DNA from: Malacoraja senta
Taxonomy: Eukaryota
Assembly (NCBI GenBank): GCA_038087875.1
Contig: CM075987.1
Span: 26,104,001-26,168,000 of the forward strand
Reading direction: 5' to 3'
Length of the DNA stretch: 64,000 nt
Shown here: piece after piece, positions 5,720 to 60,290 of the stretch
Layout: each line of letters opens with the position of its first letter
How positions within the stretch are numbered: position 1 is the stretch's first letter
The notes under the pieces: generated by a model
The model's input: the letters and a program-made list of their open reading frames with translations, nothing else
Database searches by the model: none
Told to the model about the DNA's origin: nothing
Made by a program: the position numbers and the translations under genes

Positions 5720-6012
5720 AGTTTAGTTTAGAGATACAGCGCAGAAACAGGCCCTTCGGCCCACCGAGTCCACACCGGCCAGCGGTCCCTGCACATTAAC
5801 ACTATCCCACACACGCTAGGGACAATTGTACACATATACCAAGCCGATTAACTTCCAAACCTGTACGTCTTTGGACCGTGGGAGGAAACCGAAGATCTCG
5901 GAGAAAACCCACGCAGGTCACGGGGAGAACGTACAGACAGCACCCGTGGTCAGGATCGAACCCGGGTCTCCAGCGCTGTAAGGCAGCAACTCTACCGCCC
6001 TCTGTGCCACCG
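5720..6012 (-). mobile_element. tRNA-derived SINE
   Basis: Full reverse copy; a partial 3' copy also lies at ~5280-5405. Confidence 0.85.
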
Positions 6013-8594: not shown

Positions 8595-9416
8595 TAGTCT
8601 ACTTCAGTTTAGTTTAGAGATACACCGTGGAAACAGGCCCTTCGGCCCACCGAGTCTGCACCGACCAGCGATCCCTGCACATTGACACCATCCAACACAT
8701 ACTAGGGACAATTTACTCTTGTACCAAGCCAATTAACCCTCAAACCTGTAAAGTCACTATCTCACTTAGGCGATTTTGTTGGCGACTACAGGCGACTAGG
8801 CTGTCATCACAAGGTCGCGGGGTGACACCTGTATGGTCGTGAGTTGTCTCCTCAAGTCGCCTAAAGAGTCGTAACGTTTTTCTGGTCGCCGCTTGATTGT
8901 GAAATGTTCAAAACTCTTCGGTGACTGTGGGCTTGATGTAGCTTGTCTTTGGTGGTAGGTGCTGTCGTAGGTTGTCGCCAGGATGACGTAGGTGGTCGCC
9001 GGGTGCTGACTTCGGTGAATTCCATTGGCGACTACCTACGTCAACCGGCGACAGCTACCGGCGACTGAATTGTCTTCAGTTGTTTTCAGTTGTCGCCGAC
9101 AGGGTCGTAGCTTGTTGCGGGTGGACGTAGGTTGACTTTGGTTGTCACCTGTGCGGTCGTAGGTGGACGTCCTAATGGGTCGCCGGTTGTCGGTAGCTTG
9201 ACGTCGACTAGGTGGTAGGTTGTCGTAGACGTTGTCGCAGGTGGGGTCCAGTCGCCGGTAGGCGCCGAAAAAATCGCCCAAGTGGGACAGGCCCTAACTC
9301 TTCGGAGTGTGGGAGGAAACCGAAGATCTCGGAGAAAACCCACGCAGGTCACGGGGCGAACGTGCAAACTCCGTGCAGACAGGGGCAGCAACTCTACCGC
9401 TTCCGCCACCGTGCCG
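8595..9416 (-). mobile_element. tRNA-derived SINE interrupted by a MITE
   Basis: SINE halves at 8595-8751 and 9295-9416 are colinear. Confidence 0.8.
8752..9294. mobile_element. PIF/Harbinger-like MITE
   Basis: Imperfect TIRs (..cacttaggcgatttt / aaaatcgcccaagtgggacaggccc), TAA on both sides, internal gtcgcc/gtaggt repeats. Confidence 0.75.
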
Positions 9417-16199: not shown

Positions 16200-16540
16200 C
16201 TAGCAGAATTGGGAGAATTCAACGTTCAGGCCACCAGGATGTAGACTGCCCAAGCGGAATATGAGGTGCATTTCCTCCAATTTACGGTGTTGCTCGCTGT
16301 GGCCATGGAGGAGACCCAGGACAGAGAGGTCAGATACGGAATGGGAGGGGGAGTTGAAGTGTTGAGCCACCGGGAGTTCAGGTTGGTTATTGCGGACCGA
16401 CCGGAGGTGTTCGGCGAAACGATCGCCAAGCCTCCGCTTGGTCTCACCGATGTAGATCAGCTGGCATCTAGAGCAGCGAATGCAATAGATGAGGTTGGAG
16501 GAGATGCAGGTGAACCTCTGTCGCACCTGGAACGACTGCT
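16200..16540 (-). pseudogene. GIY-YIG endonuclease domain of the PLE ORF
   Basis: C-terminal part of ORF 16200-16733: LIY...YIGET, with C-C-H-H residues. Confidence 0.88.
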
Positions 16541-18885
16541 TGGGTCCTGGAATGGAGTGGAGGGGGGAGTGAAGGGACAAGTGTTGCATCTCTTGCGGTT
16601 GCAAGGGAAAGTACCAGGGGAGGGGGTGGTATGGAGGGAAGGGAAGAATTGACAAGGGAGTTACGGAGGGAGCGGTCTTTGCGGAAGGCAGACATGGGGG
16701 GAGATGGGAAGATGTGGCGAGTGGTGGGGTCACGTTGGAGGTGGCGAAACTGACGGAGGATCACTTGTTGTATGTGACGGCTGGTGGGGTGAAAGGTGAG
16801 GACTAGGGGACTGTGCCTTTGTTGTGAGTGGGGGGGGATGGATGGGGAGAGAGAGCAGTGTTGCGGGGTATGGCAGAGACCCTGGTGCGAGCCTCATCTA
16901 TGGTGGAGGAGGGGAACCCCCGTTCCTGAAGAATGAGGACATTTCAGATGCCCTGGTGTGGAACGCCTCATCCTGGGAGCAGATGCGGCGTAGACGGAGG
17001 AATTGGGAGTGGGGGATGGAGTCCTTACAGGAAGCAGGGGTGGGAAGAAGTGTAGTCCAGATAGCCATGGGAGTCGGTAGGTTTGTAGTGGATGTCGTAA
17101 GGAGTCTATCACTGCGATGGAGATAGTGAGGTCAAGGAATGGTAGGGAAGTGTCGGAAATGGTCCAGGTGTATTGAGTGCCGGATGGAAGTTGGTGGTGA
17201 AGCGGATGAAGTCAGTCAGTTGTGTGTGGGTGCAGGATGTGCACCAAAACAATCATTCGATGTAGCGGAGGTAGAGGTCGGGGATGGGGCCCTGGTACGC
17301 ATTGAACAGGGATTGTTCTACGTACCCGACAAAGAGGCAGGCGTAGCTGGGGCCCATGCGTGTGCCCATAGCTACGCCTTGTATTTGGAGGAAATGGGAG
17401 GAGTCAAATGAAAAGTTATTAAGTGTAAGTACCAGCTCCGCTAGGCGGAGGAGGGTGTCAGTGGCCGGGTATAGATTGCTTCTACGGTCGAGAAAAATCG
17501 GAGGGCTTTGAGACCATCCTGGTGGGGGATGGAGGTGTACAATGACTGGACGTCCATGGTGAAGATGAGGGGGTGAGGGCCTAGAGAGTGGAATCGCGGA
17601 GATGACGGAGAGTGTCTGAGGTGTCTTGAACATAGGTGGGGAGGATTTAACCAAGGGGGATATGTATGGAGTCGAGGTAGGTGGAGATGAGTTCGGTGGG
17701 CACGAACAGGCAGAGACAATGGGTCTACCGGGACAGTCAGGTTTGTCGATTTTGGGGAGAAGGTAAAAGCGGGCTGTGCGGGGCTGTGGGATCGATGAGG
17801 TTGGAGGCTTGGTCGGGCAGGGCGTGGAGTGGATGAAGTTGGTGATGGTGCTGGAGATGGTGGCCTGGTGCTCGTCAGTGGGGTCATGGTCCAGGGGTAA
17901 GTAGGAAGAGGTTGTCCGAGAGGTTGGCGCGTGGCCTCAGCTTTGTAGAGGTCGACGCGCCAGACTACCACGGCACCTCCCTTGTCGGCGGGTTGATAAC
18001 CCAATCTAGGTTGTTGCGGAGTGAGTCGATGGCAGTGCGTTCAAGGGGGAGAGATTGGAGTGAGACAGGGGAGTGGAGAAGTTGAGGCGGTTGATGTCAC
18101 GGCGGCAGTTTTTAATAAAGAGTTCTAAAGCCGAAGGCTGCGAGGGGGGTTCCATGAGGATGGGGTGCGTTGGAGACGGGAAAAGGGTCATCAGTGGGGA
18201 GCGAGGACTGCTTCCCATGGAAGTGAGCTGTGAGGCGGAGGCGACGGTAGAAGCGTTCCAAGTCATGGAGGGCACGGAACTCATTGAGATGGGGACGGAG
18301 GGGGACAAAGGTAAGACCTCTGCTGAGGACAGACCGTTCGATGTCGGAGAGGGGGGAGGTCGGGGGGGATGGTGAACACCCGGCAGGGATGGGGGTTGGG
18401 GGCGGAGGAAGGCAGGTGGGTGTAATGGGGACGAGGCGATGTGTGGTGGGGGGGTGGTGGGTGGTCAGGGGGTGGGGGGTGAGAGGGCAGTGGTGTGGGT
18501 GTGGAAGAGAAGTGGTCCATAGTTGGAGGAGGGATGGGGAAGAATCAGTGGAACTGCCACTGAGATAACCAGGGCTAGGCAGACTAGCGCTAGATCCAGT
18601 GGAGTCAAACCCAGGAGAGTGGGAGTGAGCAGCGTGGAGGCTTCAGGCCCAGTACAGAGTCCAGTTTGCAGGTAAGGCGACGGCTGCGGGCTGCTGGAGG
18701 GAGGTGCGGTGGCGAGGGTCAGCGGACCCGACGGTCGGGGTCCGTGGGCAGTGTAGTCGGGGTCGGTGGGGCTGGAGGGAGGTGCAGTGGCGAGGGTCGG
18801 CGGAACCCGATGGTCGGGGTAGGTGGGCAGTAGAGTCGGGGTCCACGGGCGATGCGTGGGAGGTCCCGGTAGGCGGATGGTCGGT

Positions 18886-59392: not shown

Positions 59393-59761
59393 TAAAAGGA
59401 GGTTAATTGGCCACTGTAATTTGCCCCTGTTGTGTGTGTGTGAGAGTGGATGAGAAGGAGGGACAAGGTGTGAATGGGTGATCGATGATCGGCGTGGACT
59501 TGGTGGACCAAAGGGCCTGTTTCCATGCAATATTTCCCCGTGAAATGACTACTTCAGCTAAATTGGTATGTTTCCTTCTTCCCCACATCCTGGGGGAAAA
59601 AAAAAAACAGCTCGGCAGCGAAATATTTCAACCTGCAAAATTAATATAGAGAAACATAACGAAATATTCCAGGTCTGGATGACTGGCATCCTATCTTCAC
59701 CCCCATCACTGTGCCCAGGGGATTCTTCAGTGCATGATAGCAGGAGAGACACTCAACTATC

Positions 59762-59901
59762 TTCTTCTTCTTGCGTATGGCGTGCACAGCCTAAAGTTGT
59801 CGGAGAACTTGTTCTATTCAATCTTATTTGATTGTGCACGCCGGGTTGATTGCATTCGTCGAAACAGGGTGGACCACGTGAAGGTTGCAATCTCCCACCC
59901 C
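59762..59901 (-). mobile_element. Short non-autonomous retroposon with 5' HDV-like ribozyme and (GAA)n tail
   Basis: TSD (c)actcaactatc at 59750-61 and 59901/2-12; minus strand ends CCATACGCAAGAAGAAGAA. Confidence 0.85.
59848..59901 (-). ncRNA. Minimal HDV-like self-cleaving ribozyme (predicted)
   Basis: P1 GGGGUGG/CCACCCU (G1-U wobble), J1/2 GA, P2 GAUUGCA/UGCAAUC, P3 ACC/GGU, L3 UUCACGU, vestigial P4 (GUUUCGA), J4/2 CGAA. Confidence 0.8.
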
Positions 59902-59989
59902 ACTCAACTATCGGAACTTCGTAAAAGAACCTTGTGCGGTATTGCATAAAGCGTTGGTTAAAGAAGGTGAAAAGGTTTTCACTATAATA

Positions 59990-60290
59990 CGAAGATAGAC
60001 ACAAAATGCTGGACTAACTCAGGGGGACAGGCAGCAAAGCATCTCTGGAGAGAAGGAATGGGTGACTTTTCGGGTCGAGACCCTTCTTCAGACTGATGTC
60101 AGGGGAGTGGGCGGTACAGAGATAGATTGTAGTCGGAGACAGTAAGACTGGTTGGAGAACTGGGAAGGGGAGGGGATGGAGAGAGAGGGAAAGCAAGGGT
60201 TACTTGAAGCTACTTGAAGCAGCCCCCGCTGAGTTACTCCAGCATTTTGTGTCTATCTTTGACTTCAACCCGCATCTGCAGTTCTTTCCT
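59990..60290. mobile_element. PLE 3' fragment with inverted tail
   Basis: Reverse tail 59990-60210, then forward tail 60225-60290. Confidence 0.8.

Follow-up and report, generated by a model that had tools for sequence, protein, structure and literature searches.

The stretch of DNA considered here, termed the window throughout, comprises 64,000 nucleotides (nt) of the Malacoraja senta genome (assembly GCA_038087875.1, contig CM075987.1, positions 26,104,001 to 26,168,000 of the forward strand), and one short insert within it raises a specific question: does a retroposon begin here with a self-cleaving ribozyme of the hepatitis delta virus (HDV) type, and is its 5' end fixed by the cut that such a ribozyme would make? 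The insert lies on the minus strand between two copies of a 12-nt string, gatagttgagtg, found at 59912-59901 and at 59761-59750; both repeats of the target site duplication (TSD) that an earlier, sequence-only reading of the window had proposed were thus located, in the sequence itself and by a TSD scan. The TSD length is given as 11-12 bp because G1 of the insert (59901) doubles as the final g of the upstream repeat; the upstream copy proper (gatagttgagt) occupies 59902..59912, and the g at 59761 of the downstream copy (59750..59761) may be part of the tail. Between the repeats stands a 140-nt element, running from 59901 down to 59762, which opens with GGGGTGG and closes with ACGCAA and a short (GAA)n tract. 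The family to which it belongs is called F1 below. That its first 54 nt adopt an HDV-like ribozyme fold is supported mainly by a comparison of six lineages with similar heads.

The HDV-like head and its relatives

The bases held important in HDV-like ribozymes are G1, paired with U or C next to the cleavage site, the U, C and G of loop L3, and the catalytic C of the joining segment J4/2, followed by N-A-A. The F1 head (nt 1-54, 59848..59901, minus strand; predicted cut 5' of G1 at 59901) contains the pair G1-U36, an L3 of UUCACGU and C44-G-A-A, set in the layout of a nested double pseudoknot with P1, a crossing P2, P3 and a single-pair P1.1. In P1, nt 1-7 (GGGGUGG, 59895..59901) face nt 30-36 (59866..59872) through seven pairs, the opening one being G1-U36; J1/2 follows at 59893-59894. 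P2 consists of seven Watson-Crick pairs between nt 10-16 (59886..59892) and nt 48-54 (59848..59854), whereas the three ACC/GGU pairs of P3 (nt 17-19 with nt 27-29, 59873..59885) close L3 (59876-59882). A possible P1.1 of one pair is formed by C22 (59880) and G37 (59865). The P4 domain is absent: six nt, UUUCGA (nt 38-43, 59859..59864), separate G37 from C44. J4/2 (CGAA) lies at 59855..59858, with C44 (59858) at the position of the catalytic cytosine. The 54 nt read exactly as the sequence-only reading had written them, and its list of elements in order (P1, P2, P3, L3, one P1.1 pair, a CGAA linker), as well as its nearly deleted P4, of which the six-nt remnant is left, was recovered in full. 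Secondary structure prediction, alignments, a descriptor search and Rfam contribute to this assignment; the best Rfam match in 59500-60200 (E up to 10) is RF02682 (HDV ribozyme of F. prausnitzii), which aligns over its full length with exactly 59848-59901 on the minus strand.

The same model leads to a second short family when applied to the genome (1.94 Gb in 6,182 contigs). All five RF02682 matches (25.9-36.7 bits) belong to this family, F2, which is about 205 nt long; scores were obtained for 40 of its 839 candidates (91-100% identity), with 39 starting at nt 1-3. The 24 copies read (e.g., G000:C5:21888986-21889193; loci L062-L086 and L108-L127) begin at G1 adjoining TSDs of their own. F2 ends in ...AAACGCAA(GAA)n, with the same ACGCAA(GAA)n terminus as F1, and contains an internal TTTTT. 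Its head has the layout of F1, with P3 ACC/GGU, L3 UCCCCGU, a G after P1 and a CGAA J4/2, plus a 5-bp P4; typical copies score 32.8 bits on RF02682 (E 0.0014). In an alignment of eight heads from each family, which amounts to one comparison of two lineages, 99.5% of the helix cells pair, vs 29-41% after the 3' partners have been shifted along the alignment. Between F1 and F2, both bases have changed in six pairs (P1 positions 6 and 7; P2 positions 11, 13, 14 and 16), and P1 position 5 is U.G, U-A or C-G.

A wider set of relatives is provided by RF00622, the model of the 'mammalian CPEB3 ribozyme'. It yields at least 60 matches in the genome (59 scored of 102,231 candidates), 39 of the 60 exceeding the 35-bit cut-off, and the best reaching 64.2 bits (E 2.7e-14). 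Twenty loci were fetched (L147-L166), and all eight that were rescanned pass, at 37.0-59.7 bits. At least five types of head can be distinguished, all of which attain the 35-bit threshold, with scores of up to 64 bits: type A stands on a long interspersed nuclear element (LINE), here LINE-A; types B, C and D possess a P4; and type E does not. Family E (L162-L166, e.g., G000:C2:193290450-193290639) is about 172 nt long, ends in ...CGATAAGAAG(AAG) and has TSDs of its own; in place of P4 it carries a six-base linker, as long as that of F1, and it scores 37.0-43.7 bits on RF00622, above 35 despite the absence of that domain. It is represented by 1,639 candidates, and the 40 that were scored (the query locus at 100%, the other 39 at 90-94% identity) all start at nt 1-3. 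Head type C (L156, L157 and L159) follows the Rfam CPEB3 consensus even through P4. With RF01788 (drz-agam-2-2), no match was obtained in the genome.

One further HDV-like site, Rz3, occurs as a single copy on the minus strand at G000:C1:320228970-320229052 (L087, 1571-1653), where it scores 43.8 bits on RF00094 against a threshold of 50 (E 2.4e-4). About 52 nt 3' of it stands the AAACGCAA motif, followed by what may be a decayed copy of the flank upstream; Rz3 may be an old one-off insertion related to the families described here.

The six-lineage comparison takes one representative each of F1, F2, Rz3, LINE-A, B and E. In 99 of the 102 cells of P1, P2 and P3 the bases pair, and two of the three misses fall in E, whose P1 is better described by six pairs in another register. 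At least two standard pair types occur at 12 of the 17 helix positions, with P1 position 5 showing five. Constant throughout are an L3 of the form U-Y-C-M-C-G-Y, the G after P1 and a J4/2 of C-N-A-A. The covariation of P1 and P2 that the sequence-only reading had suggested looking for is present, in that the helices are kept through compensatory changes in sister families. As judged from these alignments, F1 is one member of a guild of putatively ribozyme-headed elements, where the earlier reading had seen a single family.

How readily such an arrangement arises by chance was estimated with a strict descriptor, which demands helices of 7 bp (P1), 6-7 bp (P2) and 3 bp (P3), U/C/G at positions 1/3/6 of L3, a G following P1, and the bases C-N-A-A ahead of the second strand of P2. 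This descriptor matches the window once, at the F1 site, and never in 32 dinucleotide shuffles (4.1 Mb, both strands); the 35-nt F1 head occurs once in the window and in no shuffle. Among the loci available at that stage, and evaluated at the level of the locus, every one that the descriptor matches had been retrieved as a copy of F1 or F2 or as Rz3. It is the conserved core bases, rather than the helices alone, that carry weight against chance. Thermodynamic folding adds little: the minimum-energy fold of the 54-mer comprises P1 and P3, that of the 140-mer P2 and a 10-bp stem between nt 60-69 (59833-59842) and nt 114-123 (59779-59788), the latter with a z-score of only -1.26. Neither fold energy is unusual vs shuffles, as is expected because the pseudoknot cannot be scored.

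Copies of F1 and their 5' ends

F1 is a high-copy family, as a count by genome search, proposed in the sequence-only reading, established. The first 35 nt, with at most two mismatches, occur at 5,770 places in the genome (2,878 + 2,892), vs none for a reversed-pattern control. A search with all 140 nt gave 540 first-look candidates, and each of the 40 that were scored covers nt 1-140 at 96-100% identity. Thirty loci were inspected with their flanks (L001-L030); every one opens with GGGGTGG and has a (GAA)n tail of variable length and its own TSD. Five of them (L003-L007) duplicate one insertion, which leaves 26 independent copies. In a scripted scan the TSD abuts G1 in all 26, unambiguously in 16, the next base being also a G in the other 10. 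The dispersion of the family, together with an individual TSD and a 3' simple-repeat tail in 26/26 independent copies, fits target-primed reverse transcription. The 3' end (59762..59777 in the window copy) consists of ACGCAA and the (GAA)n tail, whose length differs among copies and with which F2 ends alike. Of 39 copies selected solely on their last 39 nt, 37 prove to be F1 further upstream as well, part of them with deletions inside, and two have other sequence there; 5' truncation of F1 is thus rare.

The same boundaries emerge from Logan contigs (24 rows, 12 studies), a comparison that bears on the ends of the element and not on expression or RNA starts. In contigs of four organisms (runs X1, X2, X4 and X19), cover is deep over approximately 59760-59902 and zero outside. 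Loose contig ends of low agreement are found at 59901/59902 and at 59760-59766, and the low agreement at both places is the mark of many different flanks. The expected pile-up of 5' ends at G1, at the TSD boundary, is thereby seen twice, in the 26 genomic copies and in the stop of contig cover at 59901/59902. The base preceding G1 is a T in 15 of the 26 loci, and the base after the downstream TSD copy is a G in 10 of the 26, which suggests that certain targets are preferred, that microhomology plays a part at the 5' junction, or both.

Within the ribozyme-like head, contig variants of at least 5% are restricted to nt 31, 32, 41, 42 and 45. Nt 32, in the 3' strand of P1, is A in the window copy and G in most copies (62-84% of depth), and U5 pairs with either (U5-A or U5.G); nt 31 is C or U, and G6 pairs with both. 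Nt 41 and 42 lie in the linker, and nt 45 is next to the putative catalytic C. The state of C44 in genomic copies was considered as a test of selection and rejected, given that copies decay neutrally after insertion: it speaks neither for nor against function.

In four F1 copies (L034/L052, L035/L055, L036/L054 and L039/L051), the 31 nt between the 7-nt arms of P2 are inverted, which destroys the fold. The pattern of the inversion junction occurs at 11 places in the genome; among those inspected, two are ordinary copies with substitutions and four are inverted. With a frequency of about 1-2 per thousand and differing subfamily states, the inverted-core copies look like products of a rearrangement that recurs at the inverted repeat of 7 bp, either while the element is copied or later.

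LINE-A and the search for a helper

A non-coding element of 140 nt would depend on enzymes supplied by another, and the genome contains a LINE with a head of the same kind. The copy of LINE-A that was read (L167, G000:C1:86602702-86605811, locus positions 13 to ~3122) is about 3.1 kb long; further copies are L147-L150, L152-L154 and L160. The 11-nt string AATCACAACCT immediately precedes L167, whose first base is G1 of a putative ribozyme of the CPEB3 type. LINE-A heads score 52-64 bits on RF00622 and are followed by a short leader and then by an open frame with an endonuclease N-terminus. L167 is frameshifted and encodes, in three frames that overlap, the domains Exo_endo_phos, Exo_endo_phos_2 and RVT_1 (E 1.6e-33). 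Its 3' untranslated region (UTR) of about 35 nt ends with ACGAAAAGAAGAAG in AAG repeats, after which AATCACAACCT recurs, yielding an 11-bp TSD.

For the 3' end of LINE-A there are 225 candidates, the 40 that were scored being 98-100% identical, and for the 5' end 22, 10 extending as far as nt 1-4 and three beginning at nt 40-58. Young LINEs usually look like this, with only a few copies of full length, which here start at G1; LINE-A was apparently active recently. Elements of the RTE clade are described as ~3.2-3.9 kb long, with a single long open reading frame for an apurinic endonuclease (APE) and a reverse transcriptase (RT) and with a 3' UTR that is exceptionally short and consists of A-rich tri- to pentamers (PMC1291365). 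The build of LINE-A fits that description (~3.1 kb, one long frame with APE and RT, a very short 3' UTR of A-rich trimers), and 'RTE-like' refers here to the build only and not to an RT tree.

Such an RTE-like LINE is a likely helper; it combines a related 5' ribozyme with a short 3' end of similar terminal motif and AAG/GAA repeats (ACGAAAAGAAGAAG in LINE-A vs ACGCAAGAAGAAG in F1). Besides the ribozyme region, which the short families have in common with LINE-A, F2 matches the last 30 nt of LINE-A at 77% and E the last 18 nt of LINE-A at 89%. The tails of F1 and F2 have 19 nt in common at 95%; the bodies of the short families and of LINE-A are unrelated, that of F1 (nt 55-124, 59778..59847) included. 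Three observations weaken the case for LINE-A in this role. F1 gives no BLAST match to it, and the two have only the ribozyme architecture in common; the tail motif of LINE-A is ACGAAAAG..., whereas that of F1 is ACGCAAG...; and no LINE sharing the last 39 nt of F1 was found among the 39 fetched 3'-end loci, 37 of which are F1 and two truncated or other. Nor did a LINE appear among the nine genome matches in which the 3' part of the ribozyme is followed by non-F1 sequence, or among 20 loci selected by the last 56 nt of F2 (18 are F2 and two are truncated at different points), and across all fetched loci the tail motif was met in F1 and F2 only. A plausible helper of F1, on the sequences, is either LINE-A itself, with an imperfectly matching tail, or an older relative of it that ended in ACGCAA(GAA)n.

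A different type of contig was noticed in runs X1, X2 and X19 (5, 8 and 42 contigs, respectively), where the match to F1 extends only from nt 102 to the tail and breaks at 59800; beyond the break, the contigs have their upstream sequence in common (agreement 0.63). On this contig evidence, they are assigned to another family, or a LINE, that would possess the last 39 nt of F1.

A CR1-like LINE near L038/L040 was also considered as a partner and rejected: it lies on the other strand and has a different tail, and the ribozyme there runs into unique DNA. In L040 (G000:C2288:64000-73900), an isolated F1 ribozyme (nt 1-54) is present at 620-673, followed by unique DNA, and 8 kb away, at 8850-9067, there is a rearranged F1 composed of nt 1-27, an inverted segment of nt 122-44 and nt 33-140. 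The CR1-like LINE, with a tail of ATGTATCT repeats, is located between both F1 pieces in the opposite orientation. A protein atlas placed a CR1-like RT in Chordata and no lower.

A separate retroelement may be present in the window itself. At 16200-16760 on the minus strand, an open frame with a GIY-YIG domain falls just below the Pfam cut-off (22.2 vs 22.6 bits, E 1.7e-4), and more open frames follow on the same strand up to ~18900. The GIY-YIG frame probably belongs to a Penelope-like element.

Proposed mobilisation of F1, rival readings and known counterparts

All checks put forward in the sequence-only reading that lend themselves to computation turned out as it had predicted, and its interpretation is supported within the reach of sequence analysis. 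Taken together, the data point with good confidence to a mechanism in which transcription enters F1 from outside, the RNA cleaves itself 5' of G1, and the enzymes of an autonomous LINE then copy it in trans. F1 would be a non-autonomous retroposon of the kind that lacks long terminal repeats (non-LTR) and has no promoter-type head, transcribed within longer host or neighbouring transcripts. Nt 1-54 of such a transcript would fold as a P4-less HDV-like double pseudoknot and cut the RNA just 5' of G1, with C44 of the CGAA linker as the catalytic cytosine. The freed RNA would start at G1 and end in ...ACGCAA(GAA)n, and target-primed reverse transcription with LINE enzymes would then place it at new sites with TSDs of 8-15 bp. 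The likely helper is the RTE-like LINE described above, or else an older element related to it. That the RNA is cleaved, that it stems from read-through transcription and which element helps it are what we infer from sequence. Because P1.1 is a single pair and P4 is lacking, the activity of F1 is argued by analogy with P4-less delta-like ribozymes (drz), for which activity data were reportedly obtained by Riccitelli in 2014.

A number of observations weigh against this reading. P1.1 comprises only one pair and P4 is absent. The HDV-like models of Rfam, to which the sequence-only reading had pointed, pick out exactly the 54 nt and match the sister heads significantly, but F1 itself attains just 15.9 bits on RF02682 against a gathering score of 44 (E 2.6 for 4,227 families), which is weak. 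At the gathering level no Rfam family matches within the window, F1 is without a match to RF00622 at E up to 10, and F2 too remains below the RF02682 gathering score (32.8 vs 44); the Rfam HDV-like models cannot score P2 and expect a P4. Compensatory changes are seen between families only, none within F1, where the variation is all one-sided and of the CpG type, that is, compatible with the fold and not covariation. C44 is a T in 4 of the 37 F1 copies selected by their 3' ends, at the level of other CpG decay, as dead copies would be expected to show. Finally, the four inverted-core copies all have G1 as their first base nonetheless, and each but L039, which lacks the 3' end, is flanked by its own TSD.

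Several of these points would be accommodated if the F1 head were an inherited ribozyme fold that is dead or very slow, the 5' end being set otherwise, e.g., by transcription starting at G1 of a few master loci. The fold might in that case be kept for the binding of a LINE protein, the protection of the 5' end or 5' joining. The lack of P4, the one-pair P1.1 and the 15.9 bits on RF02682 agree with this explanation, as does the fact that copies unable to fold nevertheless begin at G1, three of them with TSDs. It is harder to reconcile with the catalytically important positions, which are intact in F1 and kept in five other lineages while the helices covary, with the P4-less family E, which passes the RF00622 threshold (37.0-43.7 bits), and with the 5' ends of F1, F2, E and the LINE, which coincide to the base with the cuts predicted for them. 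We regard a dead or very slow fold as unlikely. An even smaller likelihood is given to F1 as a classical short interspersed nuclear element (SINE) transcribed by RNA polymerase III (Pol III), in spite of its sharp 5' ends and high copy number, which are typical of SINEs, of the lack of any run of four or more T, and of a faint likeness of nt 37-47 to the B box consensus. Rfam (E up to 10, 59500-60200) returned no match to transfer RNA, 5S, 7SL or small nuclear RNA families, and ARAGORN found nothing; moreover, a like head stands on a 3.1-kb coding LINE and on F2, with its internal TTTTT. The proposal of the sequence-only reading that F1 is a SINE-like family without a Pol III-type head agrees with these searches, and 'SIDE-like' (after short internally deleted elements) or 'SINE-like' suits F1 better than classical SINE. 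A chance resemblance to HDV-like ribozymes, finally, might be suspected from the frequency of bare helices, which match 85 times in the same 32 shuffles and three times in the real window; it is scarcely credible in view of the 4.1 Mb in which no match is left once the core bases are required, the covariation over six lineages and the significant Rfam matches of the sister heads.

The preferred reading, of a retroposon freed by its own ribozyme and copied in trans, has known counterparts. HDV-like ribozymes are said by Ruminski and co-workers (in 2011) to be seemingly dedicated to LINEs, and hammerheads to SINEs; unlike in that picture, at least three short families here (F1, F2 and E) carry HDV-like heads. 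Non-LTR elements terminated by ribozymes (R2, RTE, Baggins and L1Tc) and short derivatives of these (R2 SIDEs and NARTc) are established (PMC6765202, PMC3414825, PMC3185411, PMC4035085). The R2 SIDEs and R2/R1 hybrid SIDEs of Drosophila (Eickbush and Eickbush 2012, PMC3414825) resemble F1 in being short and non-coding, with a 5' HDV-like ribozyme and a usable 3' end. R2 SIDEs are not Pol III SINEs, their ribozyme frees the element from a co-transcript, and they need only the 5' ribozyme and a 3' end bound by the machinery of the autonomous element (PMC3414825); F1 would work in the same way. The P3-L3 core of R2 (primer ACCTCCTCGTGGT, PMC3414825) is close to the cores of F2 and F1, and the 'most conserved' R2 motif, CCUCCUCGUGG (PMC5035012), is close to the P3-L3 core found here. 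SIDEs occupy target sites in ribosomal DNA, have a low copy number and possess a full-size ribozyme (PMC3414825), whereas F1 is scattered over the genome (5,770 matches to its head), duplicates target sites that are unrelated, ends in a (GAA)n tail and lacks P4.

LINEs with HDV-like heads (R2, RTE and Baggins) are reported to have the ribozyme at the exact 5' end, to be promoter-less and to be co-transcribed with the host, mainly in insects, nematodes and some chordates (PMC6765202); LINE-A is of the same kind. In trypanosomatids, the Pr77 hallmark joins a LINE and its short derivatives, L1Tc and NARTc, under a common 5' HDV-like ribozyme (PMC3185411, PMC4035085), as is the case here. According to the same sources, however, Pr77 is also an internal promoter and NARTc is a truncated LINE, whereas the F1 body is unrelated to LINE-A. 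Minimal drz-Mtgn and theta ribozymes are P4-less double pseudoknots of 50-60 nt, like F1, but come from metagenomes and phages and lie near tRNAs, and the preprint describing them calls the origin and function of the first minimal drz undetermined (10.1101/2023.06.13.544163). F1 and E, in contrast, are heads of eukaryotic retroposons with P4-bearing sisters in the same genome.

The CPEB3 ribozyme (RF00622 consensus) resembles F1 in its L3 UUCACGU, the G-U after P1 and a CGAA J4/2, and differs from it in P3 (ACC/GGU in F1 vs GCG/CGC) and by the P4 that F1 lacks. It is described as single-copy, intronic and 'not found outside of mammals' (PMC8233481). A literature search, with Repbase and Dfam outside its scope, showed no report, among the papers listed, of such dispersed short HDV-headed families in sharks, skates, other fish or vertebrates, and none of CPEB3-type heads on retroposons.

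The principle itself, that of ribozyme-terminated non-LTR elements with a few short derivatives, is already known. What is added is partly a matter of scale: thousands of dispersed copies and at least three short families in one chordate genome of 1.94 Gb, with F1 abundant in the contigs of four organisms. In addition, natural P4-less ribozymes are here found with a clear, if putative, job, and alongside P4-bearing sisters. A joint reading, which we put forward tentatively and hold at slightly less than even weight, is that the heads of the guild are sequence kin of the 'mammalian' CPEB3 ribozyme, that the latter is an exapted guild head, and that F1 and E represent minimal ribozymes derived through the loss of P4. 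If true, F1 and E would show a natural origin of the minimal HDV-like ribozyme by loss of that domain, and the elements of the guild would constitute the missing outgroup for the CPEB3 ribozyme. Heads recognised by the CPEB3 model stand on a LINE with copies 98-100% identical to each other. Provided that the host is not a mammal, such elements would open the origin of the CPEB3 ribozyme to direct test, and this link is the most interesting lead to come from the locus.

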